Assembly (NCBI GenBank): GCA_009392915.1
Contig: CP045477.1
Location: 128,001 to 192,000, forward strand
From: Candidatus Forterrea multitransposorum CG_2015-17_Forterrea_25_41
GTDB taxonomy: Archaea; Iainarchaeota; Iainarchaeia; Iainarchaeales; CSSED10-239
Length of the DNA: 64,000 nt
Direction: 5' to 3'
Shown here: positions 2,865 through 56,483 of the stretch, one piece after another
Layout: every line of letters starts with the position of its first letter
Numbering within the stretch: the first letter of the stretch is position 1
Translations under genes and position numbers: made by a program
The notes under the pieces: generated by a model
Database searches by the model: none
Seen by the model: only the letters and a program-made list of their open reading frames with translations
What the model was told of the DNA's origin: nothing

Positions 2865-3605
2865 TTGGCTTTACAGCAAACACATGTTATTTTTTTAAAA
2901 GAAATTATAGAGCTACATCCTAATCTTTTAAAAAACTATAATAAAAAATCGCTTTATTATGGAGCTGTTTATCCAGATATTTTTTATATTAGGCTACTTA
3001 AAACTAGACCTAATTTTTCACTTTATCTTCATGAAAATAAAAATATTATAAAAATAGGTGAAGAACTTTATAATAATTCATCTAATATTTCTGAAAGATC
3101 TTTTTCAATTGGTTTTTTATCTCATTTTTTTCTAGATAAAAGAATACATGGTTATTTAGAGAAAATTGGATTTATAGATGGCCCTGAACATTTATCTCTT
3201 GAGTTTTATTTATATATGTTTTTAGATAAAAAAACAAAAGTTAGTGTTTCTAAAAATCCAAACAAATTATTAAAAAAAATATTTAAATTTTATTTTAATA
3301 AACAAAATTATTTTTTTATTCCAAACATATTAATTAAAAGATTATTTTTGTTTGTTTGTAATTATATAATTAAAGAGACTATTGATATTAAGTATAAAAA
3401 AATAAAAAAAGGTAATTTTTTTAAAAATAATTTACTTAAAATCTCTTATTATTTTGCTTTTAATTCTTATGGTTACAGTGTATCTAAATTATTTAATCCA
3501 GATTTTAAATTTTTAGAAAAACATTTGCCTTTTCTTTTAAAAGAATATAATCTGGCAAAAAAAGATTTTATTGATTTTTTAAATAATGGTAATTTTTATG
3601 GTTAA
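2865..3605 (+). CDS. Zinc-dependent phospholipase C-like family protein (tentative)
   Basis: N-terminus THVIFLKEI...GAVYPDIFYI resembles the conserved start of Zn-dependent PLC-like proteins (H...G..PD). Confidence 0.3.
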   Translation: MALQQTHVIFLKEIIELHPNLLKNYNKKSLYYGAVYPDIFYIRLLKTRPNFSLYLHENKNIIKIGEELYNNSSNISERSFSIGFLSHFFLDKRIHGYLEKIGFIDGPEHLSLEFYLYMFLDKKTKVSVSKNPNKLLKKIFKFYFNKQNYFFIPNILIKRLFLFVCNYIIKETIDIKYKKIKKGNFFKNNLLKISYYFAFNSYGYSVSKLFNPDFKFLEKHLPFLLKEYNLAKKDFIDFLNNGNFYG

Positions 3606-4077
3606 AATATTATTTGTTTGTAGTGGGAATGTTTTTAGAAGTATGTGTGCTAAATATTGTTTAGAATATTTTTTAGCTAAAAATAATATTAAAAATATTT
3701 CTGTAGATTCTGCAGGTATTTCTGTAACTTCTAAAAAACCACAAAATATTGCTTTAGAAGTTAAAGAGTTACTTTTTAAAAAAGGAATAGATGTTTCAAA
3801 GCATTTATCTAAGAATGTTTCAAAAGTTGATTTAAAATCTTTTGATTTAGTAATCTCTATGGGTTATAATCATAAAAAATATTTAAAAGAAAAATATGGT
3901 ATTTCTTCTGTTTTATTTAATAAAGTGTGTTACGGTGTTAATTATCCTGTTTATGATAATAATGAAATTTTAAAAGAATATAAAGGTTTTAGAGGTAAGA
4001 TTTATAATATAGAAGTTGTTAAAAAAATTTATTCAGATATTAAATTTTTTCACAAAAATTATAAAAAATTCATTTAA
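3586..4077 (+). CDS. Low-molecular-weight protein tyrosine phosphatase / arsenate-reductase-like
   Basis: ILFVCSGNVFRS is the CX5R P-loop of LMW-PTPs; size is about 160 aa. Confidence 0.6.
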   Translation: MVIFMVKILFVCSGNVFRSMCAKYCLEYFLAKNNIKNISVDSAGISVTSKKPQNIALEVKELLFKKGIDVSKHLSKNVSKVDLKSFDLVISMGYNHKKYLKEKYGISSVLFNKVCYGVNYPVYDNNEILKEYKGFRGKIYNIEVVKKIYSDIKFFHKNYKKFI

Positions 4078-14443: not shown

Positions 14444-14518
14444 GGGAGTGTAGCTTAGTCTGGTTGGAGCACTCGACTGATAATCGAGAGGCCGCAGGTT
14501 CGAATCCTGCCATTCCCA
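14444..14518 (+). tRNA. tRNA-Ile (anticodon GAU)
   Basis: Acceptor GGGAGTG/CATTCCC, anticodon stem CTCGA/TCGAG, loop CUGAUAA, T-arm GCAGG-TTCGAAT-CCTGC. Confidence 0.8.
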
Positions 14519-14559
14519 CTTTCTATTTTTATATAGATTTTAAAAAAAGAGGATAATTT

Positions 14560-17450: not shown

Positions 17451-17525
17451 GGAAGTGTAGCTTAGTCTGGTTAGAGCATTGGTCTTATACACCAAAGGTC
17501 GCAGGTTCGAATCCTGCCATTTCCA
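17451..17525 (+). tRNA. tRNA-Ile (genomically encoded anticodon UAU)
   Basis: Body nearly identical to tRNA-Ile(GAU) at 14444. Acceptor GGAAGTG/CATTTCC with a compensatory change, anticodon stem TTGGT/ACCAA, loop CUUAUAC. Confidence 0.75.
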
Positions 17526-17582
17526 CTTTTTTTTAAAAATAAAGCTTTATAAATCTAATTAACTACTATATATTAGATAATT

Positions 17583-25595: not shown

Positions 25596-26099
25596 ATGTT
25601 AAATAATAAAGTTAATGCTGTAATTGACTCTTCATTTTGGATAAACTTGAGTAGAGTTGATCTTACAAAATATTTATTAGATTATTTTACTATTTATTCT
25701 ACCATAAAAGTAAAAGAAGAACTTTTTGATTTTTACGAAAGAAGAGGTTATTTTTCAAAAGATTCTTATCTTTTTAAGTTATATTTAGAAGCAGATTTTA
25801 TTATTTTAAAAGACCTTAAAGAAATTACTTTAAAAATAAAGCAAGAATTGTCAAAAGATTCTGGAGAGTTATATTCTGCTGCTCTTTTAAAGGAAATTGG
25901 AGGTGTTTTTTTAACAGATGATAAGGGGGCACTTAATTTTTGCAAAAATAATAATCTTTTTGCAATTACTTCTGTTTATTTAATAGTTAGACTTTATAAG
26001 GATAATTTAATATCAAAAGAAAAAGCTAAATTTTCAATTATGCGATTAAAAGGAAAAATAAGTAATATACATATACAATCTGCTTTAAAGGATTTATAG
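25596..26099 (+). CDS. DUF3368-type PIN-like nuclease domain protein
   Basis: N-terminus AVIDSSFWINL and ..GELYSAALLKEIGGVFLTDDKGALNFCKNNNLFAITSVYLIV match the DUF3368/PIN pattern. Confidence 0.5.
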   Translation: MLNNKVNAVIDSSFWINLSRVDLTKYLLDYFTIYSTIKVKEELFDFYERRGYFSKDSYLFKLYLEADFIILKDLKEITLKIKQELSKDSGELYSAALLKEIGGVFLTDDKGALNFCKNNNLFAITSVYLIVRLYKDNLISKEKAKFSIMRLKGKISNIHIQSALKDL

Positions 26100-26119
26100 T
26101 ATAAAAGGAGGTTTTTAAC

Positions 26120-26476
26120 ATGGTTAAAAAAGATTATAAATTGAAATCTTATAGATTATCTGATAGTTCCTTAAAATTAATATATAATGTTTCTAAAGAA
26201 AAAGATTTGAGTGAATCTGAAGCTTTAAGAATGTTAGTTGACAAAGGGCTTTATGAATATAAGTTAGAGTCAGCAATAAAAACATATTATGATAAAAATT
26301 TAGATTTAACTGCTGGAGCAAAACTTGCTGGTATTTCCAAAAGAGAGTTTATGGAAGAACTTTCAAGAAAAGGGGAAGGTATTAATCTTTCAAAAGAAGA
26401 TTATGATTATTCTAAAAAATCTTTTGAAAAATTATTTGGAAAAACAAAAAAGAAAACTACTCAAAAGCCCAAGTAG
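26120..26476 (+). CDS. UPF0175-family protein (predicted HTH antitoxin-like partner of DUF3368)
   Basis: SESEALRMLVDKGLYEYKLESAI..GAKLAGISKREFMEELSRKGEG fits UPF0175; AGGAGG RBS; adjacent to the PIN-like gene. Confidence 0.5.
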   Translation: MVKKDYKLKSYRLSDSSLKLIYNVSKEKDLSESEALRMLVDKGLYEYKLESAIKTYYDKNLDLTAGAKLAGISKREFMEELSRKGEGINLSKEDYDYSKKSFEKLFGKTKKKTTQKPK

Positions 26477-28141: not shown

Positions 28142-30544
28142 ATGCAAAAGAGATTAGGTATTTTAGGTATTTTTTTAATAGTTTTAATGTTTGTTTTTTC
28201 ATCAGGCTTTGTTTTTGCTGAAAATTCATTTGTAAGTTATAGTTCTACTTCAAAAGTAGGTTGGGAAATAACTTCTGCTGAAATTACAAATGATAATATT
28301 GAAATTAATTACATGAATAATCTTGAAGCAAGAGATTCTTGTAAAACAAATGAAAGAACTTTTATGTGGGTTCCTTTTGCAACAGAATATAGAGGTTTGT
28401 TTTTAGTAACTCTTTTTGTTCCTAATAATTTTAATAATGAATCTGGATTTGATTCATTTTTGTATGATAATTTGTCTGACAGAGGAAAAAGTGAAAATGA
28501 AACAGAAGATACTCTTAAAAAATATGAACGATATTTAAAAAGTAATGATCCTACTTTTATGAATTATTTAAATAGTTATGTTAGTGAAGATAAATATTTT
28601 TATATAGTTAAAATTGAAGATGATTTTAAACAAAATAAAAATTATACTCATAATATTGATTTAAGTATGATTAATGAATTAGATAAATTTGGAAAAGTTT
28701 ATATTTATTTATATGATCATTGTGGAAGTTTATCTTCATTTTATCATAATGACTATAAAATTTCTAAAAATCTTGCGAAAGCAGTTTATAATTTTAGTGA
28801 TGGTCAAGAAGAAACTTCTAAAAAAGAAAATGCTACTTCAATAAAATTATCTTCTTCTATTGAAGATAATAAAATAAAATTAGATTCAAATGTTACTGAT
28901 AATGTTAATATTTATTATACATTAGATGATTTTAATTTAGAAAACCATTTTAAATCAAAATTTGTTGAATTTAATTATAATAAAGAAAAAATAAATACTT
29001 ATCTTAAAAGTAATTCTTGGAATATTAATCAATTTGGGGTAAATTTTAAAGTGACTAAATATACTGCACCTGTATCTTTATCTTCTGGACAAAAACTAAA
29101 TGCAATTGCAGTTAATTATGATAATTTTACTTTAAGTAATTATCTTGAAGGAATTACTCTTTCATCTTCTGAAAATTATTCTTCATCTTCTCAAAGCAAT
29201 AATTTTTCAATTAACTTTAAAGAAGATAAAAAAACAGATAATGTGATTTGTGAAAAGGAAACAAAAATTTGTTATGTTAAATTTAATCAAAACATTGATT
29301 TAGATTTAATTGCAAATAAAGTAAATGATGGAAATGTTTATTTTTATATTAATGATATAGAAGGAGATATTGAAAATATTGTAAAAAGCTTATCTTCTCC
29401 TCTTTTAAATATTACACCACCTGCTAAATTAAATGATAATAAACTAAGTTTAGGAAGTAATTTATTCAAATATTCAGATTTAGAAAATTATACTCTAAAT
29501 CTTAATCAAAATGAATCAAAGTTTTTTACTATTAGTGCTTTCCAATTAAATACAAATGTTGATAAGTTATATTTTGTATTTTTACCTGACGAAAACTTTG
29601 AAGATTTAGTAAAATATAAAACTTTACAAAAAATAATAAATTCTGTATATTGTGATGGTTGTAAAATTCCAGATTGGATGCCAAATGGATTAATAATTGA
29701 TAATCAAAATTTATCTACTAGTGATCCTGATCCTTCTACTAGTGATCCTGATCCTTCTACTAGTGATCCAAATTGTAAATATACTGGTGATTTTGAAATT
29801 TTATGTGATTTTCATATCTTTAATTTAGATAAAGATATTGGAAGTAGTTCTATTGATAGTTCAGCAGGAACATTTAGCCCTAAAGAAACATATTATTTAG
29901 AAATTGAATATTTTTATAATGATAAAAAAAATAATTTTAATAAAAATTTAGAAGCTTATAAATTATTTGAATCTGAAAAAAATAATTTTAATCTTACTGA
30001 AAATGAAATTACAATATTTTTTTCAATAATTGGAGGAGAATCCTCTTTTTTAAATGATCAAGCTGGTGATCAAGGAGAATCTATAGGTTTAACTCAAATA
30101 AATAAACCTATATGGAGAACAGAAAGTGGTTTTAATGATCTAAAAGTATATCTTCCAAGTGAAGTTAATACAGTTGAAAAATATTATAAATATTTTGATG
30201 ATTCTAAAAATGATTTAAATAAATCTTTATATTTAGGTCTTGCAGTTTTTAAATATAATTTAAATTATGCTAAAAATAATATTTCTAACTTTAATTCAAA
30301 GTATTCAGATATTGATAGAGCATTTATAATGTTTTACGCACACCAGTTTAATATAAGAGATACAAAAACATTCTTTAATACTGTAAATATTCCTACAGAT
30401 AAAGAAAATGTAATTATTAATTGTGCAGGAACTGGTAATGATTTATTCCAAAATTCTTCTTTAAAGAAACTTGGTTGTGTTGCGACTGTAGGTTCTGTAA
30501 GAAAAATTGGATGGTATCTTAATTACATAAATAATTTAAATTAA
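28142..30544 (+). CDS. Large secreted protein with a C-terminal lytic-transglycosylase (SLT)-like domain
   Basis: Signal peptide MQKRLGILGIFLIVLMFVFSSGFVFA. C-terminal GGESSFLNDQAGDQGESIGLTQI aligns with the SLT catalytic signature E-S-x(13)-G-L-M-Q. Also an (STSDPDP)x2.5 linker. Confidence 0.45.
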   Translation: MQKRLGILGIFLIVLMFVFSSGFVFAENSFVSYSSTSKVGWEITSAEITNDNIEINYMNNLEARDSCKTNERTFMWVPFATEYRGLFLVTLFVPNNFNNESGFDSFLYDNLSDRGKSENETEDTLKKYERYLKSNDPTFMNYLNSYVSEDKYFYIVKIEDDFKQNKNYTHNIDLSMINELDKFGKVYIYLYDHCGSLSSFYHNDYKISKNLAKAVYNFSDGQEETSKKENATSIKLSSSIEDNKIKLDSNVTDNVNIYYTLDDFNLENHFKSKFVEFNYNKEKINTYLKSNSWNINQFGVNFKVTKYTAPVSLSSGQKLNAIAVNYDNFTLSNYLEGITLSSSENYSSSSQSNNFSINFKEDKKTDNVICEKETKICYVKFNQNIDLDLIANKVNDGNVYFYINDIEGDIENIVKSLSSPLLNITPPAKLNDNKLSLGSNLFKYSDLENYTLNLNQNESKFFTISAFQLNTNVDKLYFVFLPDENFEDLVKYKTLQKIINSVYCDGCKIPDWMPNGLIIDNQNLSTSDPDPSTSDPDPSTSDPNCKYTGDFEILCDFHIFNLDKDIGSSSIDSSAGTFSPKETYYLEIEYFYNDKKNNFNKNLEAYKLFESEKNNFNLTENEITIFFSIIGGESSFLNDQAGDQGESIGLTQINKPIWRTESGFNDLKVYLPSEVNTVEKYYKYFDDSKNDLNKSLYLGLAVFKYNLNYAKNNISNFNSKYSDIDRAFIMFYAHQFNIRDTKTFFNTVNIPTDKENVIINCAGTGNDLFQNSSLKKLGCVATVGSVRKIGWYLNYINNLN

Positions 30545-30610
30545 ATATTTTTACTTTAATTAAAAGAGAAACAATTCTCTTTTTATTTCTTTATTTACTA
30601 TATATTATAT

Positions 30611-33600
30611 ATGAGTAAAAGATATTTTACAATAATTTTCTTTATATTTCTAATAATAGGTTTATCTGTTCCTATTTTTTCTGCAGAAATAAACCTAAAT
30701 CCTTCTAAAACTTATTACTACAACCAAGAAATTAATCTAGGAACAACTTCTCTTCCAGAAGAAACTTTCTATGTAAACCTAAAAATAACTTCTGAAAACA
30801 GAACTTTATTTGAAAGAGATTTTTTAAAAGAAGAAGCTTTTAACATCCCTTTTATCTTTCAAGACTTCTACCCTTCTTCTTTAACTTTAACTTATAATTA
30901 TTTTTCAGTTTCTAAAGATTTACTTGAAACAAAAGAAGCTAATTTACTTTTAACAAAACTAAACCAAGAGATTGAATATTTTTTCTGTAATGAAATTGAA
31001 TGTGAAAAAGAACTTTTTGATGTTATTGAAGAAAATAAAGATTTCTATCTTTCCTCTTCTCTAAAAAACATGTCTTTTACAGTAAAGATAACTTCACAAG
31101 ATTATTTAAAAGACTACAAAGAAGTATCTTTACCTTTAAAACTTAATTTAAAAGAAGGAGTTTATTCTTTAGAGATTTCAACACTTCTTGATGATTCAAT
31201 ATTTTCAAAGACTTTAGATATTATTGTAGTCTCACAAGATCAGATTTCTTCTCCTGAAAACAATCCTTCAGGTCTTGAAGGTTTAGGTTCTGGTGTTCAA
31301 GGTGTTCCTTCTCAAAATATTTTTCAAAAAATAAAAAGTAACAGCTTACAAGATAATTTAAGAAGCTATTGGTATATTCTTTTAATAATTATTATTTTAT
31401 TATTTTTAATATTTAAAAAAAGAAAAAAAGAACCTATGCAAGAAAATATTAAAAAAGAAAGTTCTCTTTCAAGAAGAGAAGCAAGAAAAATACATTTATT
31501 TATATTATTAATAATTATTTCTTTATTTTCACAAATTACTTTTGCAAACTTTGTTGATAAAGAATACGAGTTTAGTTACTTTACAGATGATTATAAACTT
31601 TTAGAAAAAAACTTTCCTCAAGAAAACGAAATTTCTTTATATCTTACAAATTTAAAGCAAACTAATTCTTATTTTTTACCTTTAATAAACCATACAAACC
31701 AATCTTTAGTTTATTCTCAGAAAAAAGAACTTTATCAAGGAACACTAGAATACATTCCAATATATTCTTTATTTGCAATTGATATAAATAAATCACAAGG
31801 AAATTATGCTCCTTTCTTGCCAAATGAACAATATTCTCAATATTGTAAACCAGTTTTAGATTATTTTAAAAATCATCCTGTTAGTACAAAAGTAGATTTA
31901 ATAAACAGAAATAAATTTTATTTAACAAATTATATTGGTTTTTCAAAAGAATGTATAGATGAGCTTATCTCTAAAAGATGGCTTCAAGAAAAATATGTTT
32001 TAGCAGAAATTAAATATTCTCCTAAAGATTTTGATAATCAATCAAAAATTATTCAAGAAGAATTATTTTTTGAAAGTGATTTATTTTCAGATTCATTAAC
32101 TCTTCCAATAAACATTATTAAAACAGATTCTGCAATTGTCTACACTTATCCAGATCCAAAAAACTATAATAGCATAAGACTTGAAGTTGAGGAAAATGGT
32201 TGGATCTTAAGTAATAGAGTAAATTATCCTTATAGTTTTACAGAAATGGAAGAAGTTTTTACTTTTAATTTAACTGAAGGTGCTTTTGGGTCCTTTAGAT
32301 ATACTCTTAATAATTATAATGAAAATTTTGCAGATGTTACTGTTAATTATTTAGATAAAGAAGAATCTTTATCTTTTAGTAATTTTTTACCATCAAGTTA
32401 TTTTTCTATAAATGATGGTAATTTTAATACAGATGTTATAAGTAAATTAAATAGAAATAATGGTCATTTAATATTTAACAATTATCAATTATATAATGTT
32501 GTGGAAAACAGAAGAAAAAGAAGATTATCAATAAATGATAATTATCAAGATTCTTTAAATGTTTTATCAAGAAAAGAATATTCTTTAGTATATACTCCTT
32601 CTTTTTATAATGAAAATAATTTTTATCTTCATTTAAATTCAGGAAAATACTTAAACCCAATAATTAAAGGTAACATGCATTTATTTTATGATGTTGATCC
32701 TTTACTTTTCAAAACCATTGATTTGTTTATGATAAATAATGATAATGGTAAATTTTATTTTTCAGAAAACATGGCAAACTATAATTATAGTACAACAAGT
32801 TTTCTTCTAGAAAACGATACTCTTAAAATCAATGAAATATATTCTTCAAAAGACTATACTTCTTTCCATATTCTTTTTAAAGATGAAAATGTTCCTATAG
32901 TAATTTCAACAGATAGAAAAAATATTCTTTCAACAAACGATCCTTATTTTTATATTTATAAAGATTATTTTATAATGACTTTAAATGGTACTTTAAGAGT
33001 TTATAAAAATAAAAATATAAATATTACAGAAAAAGTAAACACTTATAGTAATTATGATGATAAATTTTTAACATTAACAGGCAGAAATCCTAATTTTGAT
33101 AAAAATCAAAACATTTATTTTACAAATAATCTAAAATTATTTAATGACTATATATATGATGTCTCAACAGCACAAGACCTATCTTTAATTGAACAAAAAG
33201 TATTTTGGGCAAATTCTTTTAAAAAAGCAGACTTAGAAGTTGATGATTGGTTCTCTGAAAATAGTTTTTGTGATTCTAATCTTTTAATGGAAGATTTTAA
33301 TAAAGTTTCAGAAAATCTAAAAAGACTAAATTTTACAATTCTTAAGTACCCTAATCTTAATTTAACTCCTTTTAGTAATGTTTTAGAAAATACTAAAAAC
33401 TATATTATTCCAAGAAACACTTTTACAAAAGAAAATTATGATTTTTTATGTAATTATACAAAAGAAGATTCTTTTAGAAACTATTCTAATATTATTTTAA
33501 ATTCTTCAGAATATTTAAATGATCAAAATAGTTTTATTGAACAACTTTCTTTTTTCCAAACTCCAATCTCTCAAATCTATCCTGGTCCTGATAATTATAA

Positions 33601-34480
33601 AGCTAAATATTTATCTGATTATTTTACTTCTTATAAAGAAGGTATTATTTTTATAGATGAAAATAATATTATTAAGGGTGCTTCTTCTCTTAATTTTAAG
33701 GATGATTATTCTTCAGTAATTGATTTCTTTTCAAATTATTTAGTGTTTGACAGATTATCTATCTTTTATCCTGATAATTTAGTTTTTAGTTTTGAAACTT
33801 CTGAAAATTTAGCAACTAGAAATTATATTAGAAATAATTTTTTAAAAGATAAAGAAAAATTATCTCTAAAATTTAAACTTCCAAAAAGAAGTGATGAGTT
33901 AGATGAAGATTATATTTATGAAAGATTTATTTTTCAAGATAGAGTAAATAATTATGTTGGTAATTGTACAAGGTTAAGTTTAGATGTTGCAAGAAAATAT
34001 ATCTATAACAATGTACGTAATTTTTCAGAAGATAACTCTTGGTGGGGTTCAGATTATAGAAGAGAAGATGCTTGGTTTCTTGCAAAAGAAAATCAAGTTA
34101 TTTGGAATCATGAAAATGATCTTCCTTTAAATCAAGAAAATGTTTTTGAAGGTGTTGTTTTAGGGGTCTATATTGGTTCAACAGAATACACTTATAGTCC
34201 TGATTCAACAGTTCTTATTAGAGCTGGAAAAACTTTTAAAGATCTAGAATACACACATACTATGCCATATCTTGATAATTATAAAAATAAAACAGGAATT
34301 ACTCTTAATGCAGGTTCAAGAAGTGTTAGTGTTGAAAACGCTTTTGAGTATACTTCTTCTTATGGAAGAGAATTAAGAGAGATAATTGTTCCTAGAAATT
34401 TTTATGATAATAAAATAAAAGATAAGTATGGTAAAACAGAACTTGATTATGTTAAAGAATATTTAACTTCTTTTGACTAA
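30611..34480 (+). CDS. Giant secreted/membrane-associated protein (1289 aa), hypothetical
   Basis: N-terminal signal peptide and two internal hydrophobic segments (about aa 250-270 and 300-320); N-glycosylation sequon-rich; no catalytic motif recognised. Confidence 0.4.
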   Translation: MSKRYFTIIFFIFLIIGLSVPIFSAEINLNPSKTYYYNQEINLGTTSLPEETFYVNLKITSENRTLFERDFLKEEAFNIPFIFQDFYPSSLTLTYNYFSVSKDLLETKEANLLLTKLNQEIEYFFCNEIECEKELFDVIEENKDFYLSSSLKNMSFTVKITSQDYLKDYKEVSLPLKLNLKEGVYSLEISTLLDDSIFSKTLDIIVVSQDQISSPENNPSGLEGLGSGVQGVPSQNIFQKIKSNSLQDNLRSYWYILLIIIILLFLIFKKRKKEPMQENIKKESSLSRREARKIHLFILLIIISLFSQITFANFVDKEYEFSYFTDDYKLLEKNFPQENEISLYLTNLKQTNSYFLPLINHTNQSLVYSQKKELYQGTLEYIPIYSLFAIDINKSQGNYAPFLPNEQYSQYCKPVLDYFKNHPVSTKVDLINRNKFYLTNYIGFSKECIDELISKRWLQEKYVLAEIKYSPKDFDNQSKIIQEELFFESDLFSDSLTLPINIIKTDSAIVYTYPDPKNYNSIRLEVEENGWILSNRVNYPYSFTEMEEVFTFNLTEGAFGSFRYTLNNYNENFADVTVNYLDKEESLSFSNFLPSSYFSINDGNFNTDVISKLNRNNGHLIFNNYQLYNVVENRRKRRLSINDNYQDSLNVLSRKEYSLVYTPSFYNENNFYLHLNSGKYLNPIIKGNMHLFYDVDPLLFKTIDLFMINNDNGKFYFSENMANYNYSTTSFLLENDTLKINEIYSSKDYTSFHILFKDENVPIVISTDRKNILSTNDPYFYIYKDYFIMTLNGTLRVYKNKNINITEKVNTYSNYDDKFLTLTGRNPNFDKNQNIYFTNNLKLFNDYIYDVSTAQDLSLIEQKVFWANSFKKADLEVDDWFSENSFCDSNLLMEDFNKVSENLKRLNFTILKYPNLNLTPFSNVLENTKNYIIPRNTFTKENYDFLCNYTKEDSFRNYSNIILNSSEYLNDQNSFIEQLSFFQTPISQIYPGPDNYKAKYLSDYFTSYKEGIIFIDENNIIKGASSLNFKDDYSSVIDFFSNYLVFDRLSIFYPDNLVFSFETSENLATRNYIRNNFLKDKEKLSLKFKLPKRSDELDEDYIYERFIFQDRVNNYVGNCTRLSLDVARKYIYNNVRNFSEDNSWWGSDYRREDAWFLAKENQVIWNHENDLPLNQENVFEGVVLGVYIGSTEYTYSPDSTVLIRAGKTFKDLEYTHTMPYLDNYKNKTGITLNAGSRSVSVENAFEYTSSYGRELREIIVPRNFYDNKIKDKYGKTELDYVKEYLTSFD

Positions 34481-34494
34481 ATATGTGATTTATA

Positions 34495-35484
34495 ATGAAA
34501 AAAATAATATCTTTAGGAATTGAATCAACTGCACATACTTTTGGTGTAGGGATTATTGATAATTCAGGAAAGATTTATGCAAATGTTAAAAAACAGTATA
34601 CTGCTGAGACAAAAGGAGAAGGTATTAGACCTTATGATGCATCTGTTTTTCACTTTCAAAACGCAATAGATGTTCTAAAACAAGCCTTAAGTGAATCAAA
34701 TTTAACTATTGATGATATTAATGTAATTTCTTTTGCAAGAAGTCCAGGTCTAGGACCTTGTTTGTCTGTAGGAGCAACTTTTGCAAGAAGTTTATCCTTA
34801 AAATACAATAAACCAATAGTTGGTGTAAACCACTGTGTTGCTCATTTAGAGATTGGAAAAACTTTAATGAAAGCAAAAGATCCTCTTTTCATATACACTT
34901 CTGGTGCAAACACACAAATAATTGCAAAAGACAATAAAAGATATAAGATATTAGGTGAAACTTTAGATATTGGTCTTGGAAATCTTTTTGATTCTTTTGC
35001 AAGAGATTTAGGTTTTGGTTTTCCAGGAGGACCTATTTTAGATAAAATGTATTTTCAGTCAAATAATTATATTCTTCTTCCATATTCTGTTAAAGGCATG
35101 GATATTGTTTTTTCTGGTCTTTTAACTTCTTCAAGAAAATTAATTGGAAAAGTAAAAACTGAAGATTTAGTTTATTCATTTATGCATACTGCTTATGCTA
35201 TGGTTTTAGAAGTTTGTGAAAGAGCATTATCTTATACAAATAAAAAAGAGATTATGGTTATTGGTGGTGTTGCAGCTTCAAAGGCTTTAAAAGAAATGCT
35301 TGAAAGTTTTTCAAAACAAAGAAATATTAAATTATTTATTCCTCCTGTTTCAGTTTGTCTTGATAATGGTGCTATGATTGCAGACTTAGGTTTAAAGCAT
35401 TTTATTTATGATAAAAAACAAAAAATGAAAGATACAGTTATTAATCCAGAAGAAAGAACTGATCAAATAATTATTAATTGGTGA
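34495..35484 (+). CDS. kae1: tRNA N6-adenosine threonylcarbamoyltransferase Kae1
   Basis: LGIESTAHTFGVGIID and the HCVAHLE metal site typical of Kae1/TsaD; stand-alone with no Bud32 fusion. Confidence 0.8.
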   Translation: MKKIISLGIESTAHTFGVGIIDNSGKIYANVKKQYTAETKGEGIRPYDASVFHFQNAIDVLKQALSESNLTIDDINVISFARSPGLGPCLSVGATFARSLSLKYNKPIVGVNHCVAHLEIGKTLMKAKDPLFIYTSGANTQIIAKDNKRYKILGETLDIGLGNLFDSFARDLGFGFPGGPILDKMYFQSNNYILLPYSVKGMDIVFSGLLTSSRKLIGKVKTEDLVYSFMHTAYAMVLEVCERALSYTNKKEIMVIGGVAASKALKEMLESFSKQRNIKLFIPPVSVCLDNGAMIADLGLKHFIYDKKQKMKDTVINPEERTDQIIINW

Positions 35485-35637: not shown

Positions 35638-36396
35638 TTATTTTTTTTTACTTTTAAAAATAATTGTAGGTCCAATTAATCTTACTAATTTTAATGGATA
35701 TACTTTTTTCCAGAAGTTTTTTGTCCATCCTTTTTCTATTTTTTCATCAAATGGTTCAATTATTTCTTCAACAATAAAGTTATTATCTACAAGGCATTTA
35801 TAAGTCTCACTAATTTTATGTGTGTACGCTATAAATTCTATTTTACTTCCATCTGGTCTAATTGTTTCTTGACTACATATTTTTAGTTTGTTGTAGTTTA
35901 AAACTAGTTTAGATGTTTTAGGATCTAAGCTTGAATAGAAAGGATGATCAAAACTAAAAACAAATAATCCATTTTTTTTTAAAACTCTGTTAACTTCTTT
36001 AAAACATTTTTTTAAATTAGGTATATACTGAAGTGCAAAAGCAGAAAAAACTATATCGTAACTATTTGATTTTATACCTTCAAGGTTTTGGATATTTTTT
36101 GTTGAAAAATCAACATTTACTTTTTCTTTTTTTGCAAGTTCTTTTGCATATTTTATTTGTTCTACACAAATATCTAATCCTTTACAAACTGCACCTCTTT
36201 TTGCAAAAGCAATTGAACATTGTCCTCCTCCACACCCAATTTCTAGAATCTTTTTGTTTTTTATATTTCCTAGTAATTTAAGTTTATCTTCGTGAGGCGC
36301 ATATGGTCCATAATGAGCATAGCTTGTACTTATTGTTGATTTTTCTTGATATTTTTTAGAAGATGCTTCCCAATATTTTTTAATTTTTTTAATCAT
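35638..36396 (-). CDS. Class I SAM-dependent methyltransferase
   Basis: Motif I ILEIGCGGGQCSIAFAKRGA and a downstream acidic motif LDICVEQ. Confidence 0.6.
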   Translation of the reverse strand: MIKKIKKYWEASSKKYQEKSTISTSYAHYGPYAPHEDKLKLLGNIKNKKILEIGCGGGQCSIAFAKRGAVCKGLDICVEQIKYAKELAKKEKVNVDFSTKNIQNLEGIKSNSYDIVFSAFALQYIPNLKKCFKEVNRVLKKNGLFVFSFDHPFYSSLDPKTSKLVLNYNKLKICSQETIRPDGSKIEFIAYTHKISETYKCLVDNNFIVEEIIEPFDEKIEKGWTKNFWKKVYPLKLVRLIGPTIIFKSKKK

Positions 36397-36403
36397 ATTA
36401 ATT

Positions 36404-42115: not shown

Positions 42116-43897
42116 ATGAAATTTAAAATTATTTTACTTATATTTTTATTATTAATTACTCCTTTAGGATATCTTGAAGAAACAGATAGTCAATCTTTAG
42201 ATTTTGATGTAATAAAAACAAAATTTATGGATGTTAATGTTTCAATTGAAATTCCAATATATCTTGATCAATATTCTCAAGAATCTTCTTTTGTCTTAAC
42301 TACTCCTGTTTTTGTAACAACTAATTCTCAATCAGTAGACTTAGAGGCTTATTATTTAGAAAATGGACAAAAAGTTTATGCAGATTACAGTGAAGATGAA
42401 TATGGTAATAAATTTGCAATTTTTGATATTAAAAAAATAACTAAAGCTCAATATTCTTTTTTTGTAGATGCAAGAATAGTTTCTGAAAATAAAATTATTT
42501 TTGCAGAAGATGTTTTTTCTCTTGAAAATGAAATTACTGATTTTAAGGAATATAAAGCTTCAACAAGATATATTAATTCAGATAGTAGTGAAATTATTTC
42601 AATGGCAAATTATTTAAAAAAATCAGATAATGCTTTAAAAGAACTTACAAATATTATTGATTGGACTTATAATTTTGTCGAATATGATTTAAGTTATTCA
42701 GATAAAACTGTTGAAGCAGTAAATGTTTTATCAGAAAGAAAAGGAGTTTGTTCAGAGTTTGCAATTCTTGCAGCTGCTATCTTAAGAGAAAGAGGTTTTC
42801 CTACAAGATATGTGACAGGTTATGCAAATAGTACTCTTGATTGGCAAGCCCATGCATGGCTTGAAGTATACATCCCTGGACAAGGTTGGGTTCTTGCAGA
42901 TCCTACTTTTGGAGAAGTTGGTCTTGTTGATGCAAGTCATCTTTTAATTTCAAGATCTTTTGATCCTTCAGAAATTAAAGATAGAATAACTTCTTTTGGA
43001 AATGTATCTTTAAGATTTGGAGAAAAAAAAGCAAGCTTTAAGATTAATGATCATAAAAGTTTTTCAGATCTTGGATATTCAAATGCAATTTCTGTAAATT
43101 TTGATTTTCCTGAAAAAATAAAAGAAAATTCTGCTTTTTTTATAAAAGCAAATATTACAAATACAACCTCAAGAGCAATGTCTGTTTTTTTTATGTTAAA
43201 TACACATCAGGATTTTGAATTAATCTATCCTGAAAATACAGATAAAATAATATATCTTGAACCATTTAAAGAAGAAGTTTTAACTTTTTATTTAAAATCA
43301 AATGTTGATGTTCCAAATAATTATTATAAAACTTATAGTTTTAATCTTAAGTCACAAGTAACAGACTATAGTGGTTCTTTAAATATTTATAATGATGAAG
43401 GTTATTTTCAAGAAGCTTTTTTTGTAACAGCGCCTTTATTGTATGTTGATAAAGATGTTTTAAAATATAGTTTAGAAATTATTAATTTTACTGATGAAAA
43501 AAAAGTTTTAAATTTTGATTTTAATAACAATAATGTTTTAAGTTCTGAAATTATAGAGGTTCCAATTAATTCTACGTATGTTTTTGAAAAAGAATTTGGT
43601 GTTTTAAAAGATACTTCTTTTAGTTATTTAATTTCACAAGATTATGATCTTTCAAATAATTTTTTTATTTTTGATGATTCTATTGAAGAAAAAGAAGTTG
43701 TTGTAATTGATGGTAATGTTCAAGATCAAGTTAAGCCTTCTGAAAAAGATAATAATTTAGTTGTTTGGGAAGATGAAAAATTTCCTAAAGAAGAAACTTC
43801 TTCAAATAACTTAATTGGTATAATTATTGTGATTGTTTTTATTATTTTTACAATAGTTATTTTTGTTTCAAATAAGAAAAATAAAGAAGGTTTATAG
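42116..43897 (+). CDS. Transglutaminase-like cysteine-protease-domain protein, secreted with a C-terminal membrane anchor
   Basis: GVCSEFAILAAAILRERGFPTRYVTGY ... HAWLEVYIPGQGWVLADPT is the Cys-His-Asp transglutaminase core; N-terminal signal peptide and C-terminal TM helix GIIIVIVFIIFTIVIFV. Confidence 0.6.
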   Translation: MKFKIILLIFLLLITPLGYLEETDSQSLDFDVIKTKFMDVNVSIEIPIYLDQYSQESSFVLTTPVFVTTNSQSVDLEAYYLENGQKVYADYSEDEYGNKFAIFDIKKITKAQYSFFVDARIVSENKIIFAEDVFSLENEITDFKEYKASTRYINSDSSEIISMANYLKKSDNALKELTNIIDWTYNFVEYDLSYSDKTVEAVNVLSERKGVCSEFAILAAAILRERGFPTRYVTGYANSTLDWQAHAWLEVYIPGQGWVLADPTFGEVGLVDASHLLISRSFDPSEIKDRITSFGNVSLRFGEKKASFKINDHKSFSDLGYSNAISVNFDFPEKIKENSAFFIKANITNTTSRAMSVFFMLNTHQDFELIYPENTDKIIYLEPFKEEVLTFYLKSNVDVPNNYYKTYSFNLKSQVTDYSGSLNIYNDEGYFQEAFFVTAPLLYVDKDVLKYSLEIINFTDEKKVLNFDFNNNNVLSSEIIEVPINSTYVFEKEFGVLKDTSFSYLISQDYDLSNNFFIFDDSIEEKEVVVIDGNVQDQVKPSEKDNNLVVWEDEKFPKEETSSNNLIGIIIVIVFIIFTIVIFVSNKKNKEGL

Positions 43898-47410: not shown

Positions 47411-47519
47411 AAAAATCCTTATATTTATAAATATTATGCCTAACATATAAGTATAATATATTTTAATAAATGATAGCTGATGTTTATAGATAGAATAAAA
47501 ATTCAAAGAAAAGAAAAAA
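47411..47519 (+). repeat. About 110-bp promoter/leader repeat, copy 2
   Basis: Identical to 44482-44590. Confidence 0.85.
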
Positions 47520-49333
47520 CTTTTTTTGAAAAAAATGTTGACAAAAAAAGAAAAGCTATTAGTCCACTTATAGCAACCATCCTTCTTGTAGTTGTTGCTG
47601 TTGCCATCATCGGTATTGTTCTTTCTTGGGGAAAAGGTTTTACAAACACAACTCTTTCTTCTGCAGATAATGTTAATACCAAAAATTCTTTCACAGGTCT
47701 TATTTGGTCTTTTGAAACTTTTGGAAATAATGTTTTAGTTGAGAATAAATCAAAACAAGATTTAAATATTACTGGTTATACTATTAATTCTCTTGATCAT
47801 AATGGTTTTTGGATAAACTCTTATCATCCTTTAGAAACCACTCTTTCAATATCTCCTGGAACTTCAGATAATGTGTCTTTGATTTGTATGCCAGAGGGTA
47901 AATTTATTTTAACTTTAAAAACCTCAACAAATGAAAACATACCTCTTAACATCTCTCCTTCAAAAACAAGTAGAGGTTCTACTTGTGAGGAGTATAATGT
48001 TTCTCTTTGGGAGTTTGTAGCAGAAACTGGAAGTTATTCTATTAATACTTTTACAATGCAGGAAGGAGAACTTGTAACTAACGGTGGGTTTGAGACTGAT
48101 TTATCTGGTTGGTTAAGAACAAGTCATATTATTCAAAATAATGATGTTGCAGATGTTAATCTTATTGGCTCTGATTATATTTTAGAACAACAAAATGTTG
48201 TAGAAATGGGTAAAAGTTACTTAGTTACTTTTGAAATTAAAAACTATTATTCAGGTGCAGTTTATTTTTATAATGTTAATTTGCCAGGGGTAGGTAGTGG
48301 TTATACTGCAACTTCAAATGGGGTTTATGCACTAACATTTACATCTAGTGGAAATAACATCTTATTTCGAACTGTAACTAATTTTGTAGGATCTATTGAT
48401 AATATCTCAATAGTAGAAATCCCTCCTCTTGAAACAATAACCACAGGCACAAAATACTTAGAGAACACAACAGCAGGAACAACTGCTATTGAAAATAAAC
48501 AAGCTTATGGTACTTGGGAATTTGATGTTTATAAAGAAAATGCAAATTATCATTATACATATTTTATAAATTCTACCACAAATACAATGGATAATAGTTA
48601 TAGAATTACTTTAAAAAATTTTAATGCTTTAGATTTAAGAAAACAAGGTGATTCAACTTTAACATTATTATTAACTTCTGATAATTATATTCAAGATAAT
48701 ACTTGGTATAGAATAAAAGTTGCAAGACTTCAAAGCGAAGGTGTGTTTAACGACATACCTACTTTGCAGACTAGTGATATGGTGAATAGTGCAACACAAC
48801 CTTACCAATCATTTACAAGTAAGGGGAGATATGGATTCAGTGCTATTGCAAATGGAACTACAATTACTCATGCTAATACAGCAGATGAAATAGACCTTGT
48901 AAATACAGGAAAATACCTTGTAGAATTTGATTTAAAATTAAACAGCGGGATAGCCCCAGATGTAGCATTAGCAGCAAGTGTAACAAGTGGGTTGTATTCT
49001 AATTCAGTTCAATCTATTGTAGGGAGAAATAGTTTTATACTTACTGCAAGTAATTCAATTACAGGGATATTAAGGTTTTATAACAGTTCTACTGAGTCTG
49101 CAGACTACGAAGTTTCAAACTTAACAATCAGAAGAATCTACCCAAAAGACACATTTGCAGTATTTATTAAAGGTGGAGAGTTTGGAGATGATTGGACTTT
49201 AGTAGATACAACAGGTGGAAGTGGAACAAACCCTGTCACAGACTCTACATATACAACAAGCAATTACTTTGTAGCTGACCTTGATGCTGGAGATAGAATA
49301 GCTAATGTTAAAATAAAACCAAATATTGAATAA
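47480..49333 (+). CDS. Class-III-signal-peptide surface protein, paralog 3, with a central CBM4/9-like carbohydrate-binding-type module
   Basis: First about 190 aa and last about 65 aa are nearly identical to paralog 1. The central region begins NGGFETDLSGWL, reminiscent of CBM_4_9 N-termini. Confidence 0.6.
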   Translation: MFIDRIKIQRKEKTFFEKNVDKKRKAISPLIATILLVVVAVAIIGIVLSWGKGFTNTTLSSADNVNTKNSFTGLIWSFETFGNNVLVENKSKQDLNITGYTINSLDHNGFWINSYHPLETTLSISPGTSDNVSLICMPEGKFILTLKTSTNENIPLNISPSKTSRGSTCEEYNVSLWEFVAETGSYSINTFTMQEGELVTNGGFETDLSGWLRTSHIIQNNDVADVNLIGSDYILEQQNVVEMGKSYLVTFEIKNYYSGAVYFYNVNLPGVGSGYTATSNGVYALTFTSSGNNILFRTVTNFVGSIDNISIVEIPPLETITTGTKYLENTTAGTTAIENKQAYGTWEFDVYKENANYHYTYFINSTTNTMDNSYRITLKNFNALDLRKQGDSTLTLLLTSDNYIQDNTWYRIKVARLQSEGVFNDIPTLQTSDMVNSATQPYQSFTSKGRYGFSAIANGTTITHANTADEIDLVNTGKYLVEFDLKLNSGIAPDVALAASVTSGLYSNSVQSIVGRNSFILTASNSITGILRFYNSSTESADYEVSNLTIRRIYPKDTFAVFIKGGEFGDDWTLVDTTGGSGTNPVTDSTYTTSNYFVADLDAGDRIANVKIKPNIE

Positions 49334-55619: not shown

Positions 55620-56483
55620 TTGTGTATTTTAATGATTGAAATAATTTTATTTATTAAACTTTTTATAATATTAATTGCCACAAGTATAGGTGCTTGGACA
55701 GACTATAAAACAGGGTATATCTATAACTGGATAACTTTTCCTTTAATTATCTTAGGTTTATTATTATTAATTTTAGAATCTTTTGTTTTATTTAATCTTG
55801 GTTGGTTTTATTTTTTAAAAGTGTTTATAATTGGTTTATTAATATATGGTATTGGTTATTTATTTTATTATTTTGGAAAATTAGGAGGAGGAGATGTAAA
55901 ATTATTTTTAGGAATTCATCTTTTAGTTCCTTATGTAAATGGTCAACTTTTAATTTTATGGGTTTTAATTTTATCTTCTCTATTATCTGTCTTAATTGTT
56001 TCAATTAAATATTTATTTATTCTTTTTAGAAAAATTACATTTACTGAATTTAAAAAAATTATAAAAACAAGAACCTCTAAAATGATTATTTATTTATTAA
56101 TGTTTATTTTTTTTGTTTTTCTCTTATATTCTGCAATCTATAATGTTGGTTTTTCAAAATATTATTACTTATTATTAATTCCTATATTTATAGGTCTTTT
56201 AACAGTTTTATTTGAAGAAGAAATTAAGAAATATATTTATCTTAAAAGAAAAGTTTTAAGGAAAATAGAAGAAGGAGATGTTTTAGCAATTGAGTTTTTA
56301 TCAAAAGAACTTCTTAATAAACTAAATATGGGAAATAGACAAGTTATTGAAGAAAAAGATTTATTGATTATTAAAAATTTAGATGTTAAATCTTTACCTA
56401 TATATGATAATCTTCCAAGATTTGGACCTTATATACTTTTAGGTTTTATTTTTTCTTTTTTATATTTATTTTTCTTATTTTAA
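55620..56483 (+). CDS. Archaeal prepilin/preflagellin peptidase (A24 family, PibD/FlaK-like)
   Basis: Polytopic; first catalytic Asp in IGAWTDYKTGYI, second in GGGDVKLFLG (GxGDxK). Confidence 0.6.
   Translation: MCILMIEIILFIKLFIILIATSIGAWTDYKTGYIYNWITFPLIILGLLLLILESFVLFNLGWFYFLKVFIIGLLIYGIGYLFYYFGKLGGGDVKLFLGIHLLVPYVNGQLLILWVLILSSLLSVLIVSIKYLFILFRKITFTEFKKIIKTRTSKMIIYLLMFIFFVFLLYSAIYNVGFSKYYYLLLIPIFIGLLTVLFEEEIKKYIYLKRKVLRKIEEGDVLAIEFLSKELLNKLNMGNRQVIEEKDLLIIKNLDVKSLPIYDNLPRFGPYILLGFIFSFLYLFFLF

Follow-up and report, generated by a model that had tools for sequence, protein, structure and literature searches.

A predicted, highly divergent GH23-type domain in a putatively exported DPANN protein with replaced alleles

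A modular protein encoded between cysS and kae1

The window analysed here, a 64,000-nt stretch of DNA, is AT-rich (GC ~24%, 20-30% throughout) and carries the gene for an 800-aa protein between cysS, on the minus strand, and kae1. The archaeal origin proposed in a first-pass annotation is borne out by matches to arch_KAE1 (Kae1 at 34495-35484; TIGR03722, 409 bits) and to archaeal DnaG primase, and the other genes of the window include several aminoacyl-tRNA synthetases, thermosome, GatE/GatD, SRP54 and FtsY. The locus comprises the following features.

28142-30544, plus strand: complete gene of the 800-aa secreted multidomain protein (ORF list)
28142-28219, plus strand: signal peptide, aa 1-26, MQKRLGILGIFLIVLMFVFSSGFVFA, the sole hydrophobic stretch, with predicted cleavage after VFA
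28220-29713, plus strand: three beta-rich modules, aa 27-524 (model, pLDDT 72), presumed binding or spacer modules
28841-29170, plus strand: middle module, aa ~234-343, Fn3_assoc/CHB_HEX_C-like
28222-30555, plus strand: hypervariable "cassette" that encodes the mature protein (window compared with L010 and L001 by blastn)
29714-29770, plus strand: Ser/Thr/Asp/Pro linker with a 21-nt (STSDPDP) tandem unit, preceding the catalytic domain
29807-30541, plus strand: predicted GH23-type (SLT/goose-lysozyme-like) catalytic domain, aa 556-800, 245 residues
30032-30100, plus strand: active-site motif GGES...GLTQI, GGESSFLNDQAGDQGESIGLTQI, aa 631-653, with Glu633 (nt 30038-30040) as the predicted general acid
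30212-30262, plus strand: DLNKSLYLGLAVFKYNL, aa 691-707
30320-30352, plus strand: AFIMFYAHQFN, conserved F728/Y732/Q735 block, possible counterpart of SLT motif III (AYNxG)
30563-30588, plus strand: AT-rich hairpin AAAGAGAA-ACAA-TTCTCTTT into a T-run (read from the sequence)
30611-34480, plus strand: gene of the downstream 1289-aa protein; signal peptide and TM segments inside the protein (ORF list)

A Shine-Dalgarno-like GAGG lies 9-12 nt 5' of the ATG of the 800-aa protein gene, and the two segments that the first-pass annotation had quoted from 30010-30420, aa 631-653 and aa 691-707, are both encoded there. Because the hydrophobic segment of the protein is aa 1-26 alone, with a K/R n-region and VFA at its C-terminal end, the protein is most likely exported, in agreement with the initial suggestion of secretion; a second TM-like segment is absent from the protein. 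An exact-sequence look-up placed the identical 800-aa sequence on 43 contigs. The 663,621-bp JGI contig of sample 3300007985 carries it, as do dozens of other assemblies, and the organism is present in 60-80 sample blocks. Its NCBI entries, NCP72321.1 and others, are named "hypothetical protein [archaeon]"; all sources give it as "hypothetical protein", and precomputed Pfam matches are absent.

The N-terminal modules gave generic Ig/FnIII-like matches only. Scanned alone, the middle module reached 25.3 against a threshold of 23 for Pfam Fn3_assoc and came near the threshold for CHB_HEX_C_1, and in the third module Cys370, Cys377, Cys504 and Cys507 are invariant (CxGCxIPDW). The copy number of the STSDPDP unit in the linker differs between samples: in L009, whose 11.9-kb locus is 99.8% identical, loss of one unit, S525-P531, is the sole difference in the locus and in the protein (793 vs 800 aa). 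Several homologues carry an extra Lcl_C/DUF1566 domain (PF07603, E 1e-7 to 6e-14), which is placed C-terminally in some and internally in others.

The hairpin and T-run between the 800-aa and 1289-aa protein genes form a possible terminator. Segment-wise searches of Pfam and PDB with the 1289-aa protein returned nothing above threshold (the best match, GH130, scored 19 bits against a cut-off of 26), and a papain-like Cys/His arrangement in its C-terminus (GNCTRL...YTHT) was a guess that found no support. The first-pass annotation had described the two genes as paired. The order cysS(-), 800-aa gene, 1289-aa gene, kae1 is indeed kept in L009, L010, L012 and L008, of which L008 is the contig that the window comes from, and the 5.9-kb contig L001 has the same pair. 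In L013 and L014, the lytic-transglycosylase-like (LT-like) gene (P0007, with Lcl_C) still adjoins cysS, and a 77-aa ORF, AbiEii and a 191-aa ORF stand in place of the giant gene. Because the 1289-aa gene is absent there, the pair is not obligatory, and the 1289-aa protein is best regarded as a neighbour.

Conservation and predicted fold of the C-terminal domain

We assembled a family by exhaustive phmmer with aa 560-800 against 1.84 billion representatives, which returned 12 relatives (E 4e-124 to 3e-6), all of them proteins of 481-1092 aa in which the domain is C-terminally placed. Exhaustive phmmer alone succeeded: word-indexed homologue searches with the domain or its family profile found nothing, although the collection contains the protein, and Pfam, NCBIfam and PDB phmmer searches with the single protein or its C-terminus were empty or returned noise. 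No second copy of the domain was found elsewhere in the window by hmmsearch.

Alignment of the window domain with its 12 relatives, which are 25-80% identical to it, revealed nine invariant residues (E633, S634, G649, Q652, Y684, A701, F728, Y732 and L777) and five that are nearly invariant (S647, Q735, K788, W791 and Y792). The alignment offers no continuous block of 7-10 conserved columns. The predicted catalytic Glu is thus conserved in 13/13 sequences, as are its neighbouring Ser and the Gly and Gln of GLTQ 649-652, while the middle positions of the latter vary (L/F/P/I, then T/A/G/V/P). The candidate motif III block reads (A/L)F-x-x-F-Y-x-H-Q, with F728 and Y732 invariant and Asn not conserved. 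Because E633, S634, G649 and Q652 persist in all members at such low identities, the alignment argues that ES...GLTQ is no low-complexity accident, the outcome that the first-pass annotation had named as refuting its proposal. Among the 27,858 aa of the window's 165 six-frame ORFs, the pattern ES-x(10-20)-GL[MT]Q occurs a single time, at the aa 633 site. The SLT family 1 signature, originally described as Glu-Ser followed by GLTQ exactly 15 residues later, stands as regards its residues and needs correction as regards its spacing, which is 15 counted from Ser634 to Gly649 and 16 from Glu633, against 15 from Glu to Gly in Slt70. Since the length of the loop between ES and GxxQ differs among homologues, the spacing as such is not conserved. 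The 13 sequences share neither an invariant Asp nor a second invariant Glu; the alignment points to a single catalytic carboxylate in the domain and no Asp52-type nucleophile.

The AlphaFold2 model of the domain computed from the 13-sequence alignment (pLDDT 90, pTM 0.90) agrees with the lysozyme-like fold that had been anticipated. A 15-residue helix (65-79 in the model) ends with Glu633-Ser634, and a short beta-hairpin with G649 and Q652 follows. A Glu at a helix end followed by a beta-hairpin is the textbook arrangement in lysozymes and SLTs. Structure comparison of the model matched GH23 structures, listed here with the two values obtained for each.

C. jejuni Slt Cj0843c: 12.7; 162
E. coli Slt70: 12.3; 160
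P. aeruginosa Slt: 11.7; 158
MltC: 11.6; 156
Salmon goose-type lysozyme: 11.0; 150
MltE: 10.9; 162
MltF: 10.7; 171
phiKZ gp144: 9.9; 155
Tse3: 9.2; 161
MltD: 9.2; 154

Foldseek with the same model returned the same GH23 set, with weak E-values (0.07-1) and probabilities of 0.9-1.0. The register of the Glu was examined against a reference alignment of the SLT domains of E. coli slt, emtA (mltE), mltC and mltD. Using hhalign, the family profile matched this alignment with P = 0.0013 and IIGGESSF...GLTQIN was paired with ARQESAWNP...GLMQI, placing the Glu on Slt70 E505 (precursor numbering), and hmmsearch paired ES with MltE E64, MltD E125 and the ES of the MltC TESSF motif. Past the hairpin (beyond domain position 100), the column confidence of hhalign is ~0, which covers both the pairing of DLNKSLYLGLAVFKYNL with "Ni..G..YL", a likeness noted in the first-pass annotation, and that of F-Y-x-H-Q with AYNxG.

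Neither the window protein nor its domain matches Pfam SLT at E <= 10. Among the 13 members, SLT is matched by 4/13, SLT_3 by 2/13 and C-type Lys by 2/13 (the latter at E >= 0.08). P0008, the sister-genome allele at the same locus, scores 24.0 bits in a match that spans positions 10-107 of the 117 in the SLT model and exceeds the PF01464 gathering threshold of 21.3 bits; P0007 and P0003 reach 20.0 and 14.2 bits. SLT membership of the window domain, which lies below the PF01464 threshold, therefore rests on transitive homology and fold. Taken together, sequence and model indicate that aa 556-800 are a real, very divergent lytic-transglycosylase/goose-lysozyme-type (GH23) domain.

The domain shares with family-1 lytic transglycosylases a mainly alpha-helical GH23 fold, the Glu-Ser at a helix end and the hairpin G..Q, yet it is only 7-14% identical to Slt70, MltC, MltE, MltD and Cj0843c over the structural alignment. 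It differs from them in an N-terminal addition of ~75 residues, made up of two helices and two short strands, and in a helical segment inserted after the hairpin, which together bring the total to 245 aa, and in having F-Y-x-H-Q at the possible position of their motif III AYNxG. Also unlike these enzymes, it belongs to an archaeal host and follows N-terminal modules that resemble neither the Slt70 superhelix nor lipoprotein anchors.

In profile-HMM searches of PDB, the best matches were C-type lysozymes (GH22; shrimp 6ukc, E 0.007; Musca 3cb7, E 0.014; HEWL, E ~0.5). E-S-x-F...(S/D)-Y/F-G-I/L-x-Q-I-N-x-x-W (ES...SFGxxQINxxW) pairs, residue by residue, with Glu35-Ser36...Asp52-Tyr-Gly-Ile-Leu-Gln-Ile-Asn. 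However, only the Glu35 half of the C-type (PF00062) catalytic pair has a counterpart, the Asp52 column being occupied by Ser647, and the domain lacks the compact ~120-130-aa GH22 fold. By sequence and model, the local motif is thus intermediate between the two families, GH22 and GH23, whereas the domain as a whole has the GH23 fold.

Replacement of the mature part between near-identical genomes

Comparison of the window with L010 (JGI 3300042275) localised the variation within the locus. The two are 96.6% identical in nucleotides as far as 28221, where the signal-peptide codons end, and 96.9-97.9% identical from 30556 onward, 12 nt past the stop codon. Across the intervening cassette, blastn of L010 and L001 against the window gave ~70-74% over part of the gene and no alignment elsewhere, with 96.9-97.6% from 30556 onward for the two together. 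The signal peptide is 100% kept in the L010 allele, the rest of that protein being replaced, and L001 has the same replacement pattern. In these replacement alleles the catalytic domain is 36-42% identical and the other domains are different ones, whereas the flanks are ~97% identical. Protein identities (% vs the window protein) are as follows.

L010: CysRS 99.6; LT-like N-terminal domain unrelated; LT domain 42; 1289-aa protein 96.7; Kae1 98.2; PPase 99.5
L001 ("Ca. ainarchaeum sp." MAG): LT-like 48; LT domain 36; 1289-aa protein 97.2; CysRS, Kae1 and PPase not on the contig
L012: CysRS 92; LT-like 60; LT domain 81; 1289-aa protein 60; Kae1 89; PPase 82
L013: CysRS 83; LT-like 35; LT domain 39; 1289-aa protein absent; Kae1 85; PPase 71

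L012 is more distant; there each of the two surface proteins is only 60% identical, against 82-92% for the flanks. The variability looks like whole-allele replacement, judging from these alignments. A diversity-generating retroelement was considered as its source and rejected: L001 holds no template-repeat copy, and no reverse transcriptase was found among the 20 Pfam-scanned ORFs of the window. Exchange of the mature part is compatible with diversifying or host-range selection acting on a surface protein, and allele replacement together with the adhesin-type add-ons suggests an outward-facing, partner-specific function. The replacement makes it likely that the protein helps to determine partner specificity, a practical starting point for assigning hosts to uncultured DPANN populations.

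Proposed function and its alternatives

Our working model is that the protein is probably a Sec-exported modular enzyme of a DPANN archaeon that cleaves bacterial peptidoglycan strands via Glu633. After Sec export, the three beta-sandwich modules and the flexible STSDPDP linker would present the C-terminal GH23-fold domain (aa 556-800), in which Glu633, at the helix end with Ser634 next to it, would serve as the single general acid on the beta-1,4 MurNAc-GlcNAc bond, and the glycan strand would lie across the (S)(F/Y)G-x-x-Q-I-N beta-hairpin, which is conserved. With a single conserved carboxylate, the domain is expected to use lytic-transglycosylase or goose-type-lysozyme chemistry, yielding 1,6-anhydroMurNAc in the first case and a hydrolytic product in the second. 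Goose-type lysozymes (GH23) are eukaryotic enzymes, and their auxiliary Asp residues, unlike the Glu, have no invariant counterpart in the alignment. The enzyme would probably serve to break through, or to salvage, bacterial walls, be they those of a host, of prey or of dead cells.

Bacterial peptidoglycan is the most likely substrate. The same fold and Glu might act on another beta-linked N-acetylhexosamine polymer, such as chitin or chito-oligomers, an archaeal envelope glycan or the pseudomurein of a methanogen host, which we consider unlikely; the pseudomurein target, entertained in the first-pass annotation, found no support. It appears improbable that the locus is a strain-level host-range cassette in which the GH23 head is recombined with adhesin modules behind a fixed signal peptide and some alleles target an archaeal-host glycan (e.g. 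pseudomurein). If true, those alleles would represent the first glycan-strand-cleaving enzyme for such a wall.

The domain could also serve the archaeon's own envelope or surface apparatus, like VirB1, EtgA or FlgJ, or remodel its own glycan layer. This is quite improbable, as the gene lies between cysS and kae1, outside any pilus or secretion cluster, and both the strain-level allele replacement and the added adhesin-type Lcl_C point to an outward-facing interaction; moreover, archaea are not known to have murein to remodel. An apparent degeneracy of motif III and the adhesin-like build, with its beta-sandwich arrays and with Lcl_C in some alleles, would suit a catalytically dead glycan-binding or adhesion module that retains the lysozyme fold, but invariance of Glu-Ser and of the hairpin G..Q down to 25% identity is unexpected once catalysis is lost and makes such a module very unlikely. 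A chance match of ES...GLTQ in an Asn-rich region, for which the 13% Asn of the protein and the empty single-sequence searches might speak, is contradicted by the family conservation, the AlphaFold2 model, the GH23 structural matches and the SLT score of P0008 and can be dismissed.

The preferred reading, cleavage of bacterial peptidoglycan, can be set beside known systems. In contrast to the GH23-like effectors and phage enzymes T6SS Tse3, phiKZ gp144 and phi6 P5, the domain has no phage or viral-contig relatives here, and its gene stands in a housekeeping chromosomal context with no secretion-system linkage. A phage or mobile-element origin was rejected on the same grounds (no relatives in phage or IMG/VR sequences; housekeeping neighbours). 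The first-pass annotation had called a murein-cleaving enzyme unexpected in archaea; murein transglycosylases in DPANN are, however, already known as a kind, because they have been reported in PMC8204110 and PMC9723730. Castelle et al. 2021 (PMC8204110) described extracellular murein-like lytic-transglycosylase proteins of up to 3,000 aa in Pacearchaeota and Woesearchaeota, and noted that such proteins had been seen before in three DPANN genomes (Rinke 2013; Castelle 2015). Vigneron et al. 2022 (PMC9723730) found GH23 enzymes in five Woesearchaeota MAGs and proposed predation on bacteria, and PMC10936187 and PMC11537232 repeat the point.

Like these published proteins (fam00969 in PMC8204110; PMC9723730), the window protein is a large secreted GH23-type protein of a DPANN genome, and the proposed role, binding and degradation of bacterial cell walls, is the same. 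Its likeness to fam00969 is one of DPANN genome, size, export signal and fold. Whereas the published proteins were found by standard HMMs or CAZy, the window protein is "hypothetical" and belongs to a family of 12 representatives. The general idea of DPANN murein transglycosylases is not new; new are the divergent, unannotated GH23 subfamily and the cassette hypervariability at one locus between near-identical genomes. If active on peptidoglycan, the protein would add an unannotated, highly divergent branch to the DPANN wall-degrading enzymes, which may let these genome-reduced archaea attach to bacteria, feed on them or kill them. The case also shows that screens with standard HMMs or CAZy (Pfam SLT, GH23) give too low a count of such enzymes, this one being named "hypothetical" in every database. 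The single named relative carries the label "Candidatus ainarchaeum sp." and neither Pace- nor Woesearchaeota, and the lineage possibly lies outside these two groups if that label is right.

Allele replacement at the LT-like gene

The variable features of the lytic-transglycosylase-like (LT-like) locus are these.

Window 28142-30544, plus strand: LT-like gene, encoding a secreted 800-aa protein with a C-terminal GH23-type catalytic domain
Window 29714-29770: 21-nt tandem repeat encoding STSDPDP units within the LT-like gene, differing in copy number between samples
C-termini of P0002, P0005, P0007 and P0008, L010 about 3200-3644 and L001 about 1900-2312: Lcl_C/DUF1566 domain closing the alleles

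We found that the LT-like gene is occupied by different alleles in two related loci from other assemblies. In a nucleotide comparison, window 28222-30555 and L010 1073-3947 showed sharp identity breaks at both edges, and L001, over its stretch preceding position 2598, likewise breaks sharply against the same window interval, while the flanks around the gene are 96.6-97.9% identical to the window in these two loci. The catalytic domains of the replacing alleles are 36-42% identical to that of the window. The mature-protein part has been exchanged in L010 and L001, with differing N-terminal modules and the gain of an Lcl_C domain. The signal peptide is 100% conserved. Judged from these comparisons, the LT-like gene has the appearance of a hypervariable locus for a surface protein, exchanged in the manner of a cassette.

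Variation on a smaller scale was observed between samples that are 99.8% identical across the 11.9-kb locus, where the sole protein difference is the STSDPDP repeat copy number, resulting in LT-like proteins of 800 versus 793 aa.

The final ~40 residues of the allele Lcl_C/DUF1566 domains are N/Y/S-rich and terminate in ...VRCVRD; we take these ends to resemble the variable regions of diversity-generating-retroelement targets. A template repeat of such an element was not found in L001, and a Pfam scan of 20 window ORFs revealed no reverse transcriptase.

Relatives of the LT-like family were recovered by exhaustive HMMER search only. A word-indexed protein search returned zero matches, even though the collection behind it contains both the query protein and its relatives. 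Word-indexed searching may systematically miss families of very AT-rich DPANN genomes.

The downstream 1289-aa protein

Window 30611-34480, plus strand: 1289-aa protein that carries a signal peptide, a TM segment at about aa 253-275 with KKRKK after it, and another signal-like stretch at about aa 297-316

This neighbour is fast-evolving, with 60% identity in the related locus L012 compared to about 90% for the flanks. In L013 and L014 the gene is missing and its place is occupied by an AbiEii-containing trio. Pfam and PDB searches yielded no family assignment.

Other genes and tRNAs of the window

A class-I methyltransferase gene (252 aa, 35638-36396, minus strand) is shared with L009 and missing from L010, in which window 35647 is joined directly to 36402, so that 35648-36401 is absent. 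Just upstream of cysS lies a gene pair encoding DUF3368 (PIN-like, 167 aa) and UPF0175 (118 aa) proteins (25596-26476). This pair, also conserved in L012, is similar to a toxin-antitoxin module. An isoleucine tRNA with the anticodon UAU (17451-17526) was observed next to a normal tRNA-Ile(GAU) (14444-14519); UAU isoleucine tRNAs are unusual in archaea and have been reported for a few reduced lineages.

Three genes are possible further surface or interaction genes.

Window 42116-43897: transglutaminase-core protein, 593 aa (PF01841, E 2e-23)
Window 47480-49333: protein of 617 aa whose N-terminus is of the archaeal type IV pilin type
Window 55620-56483: prepilin peptidase
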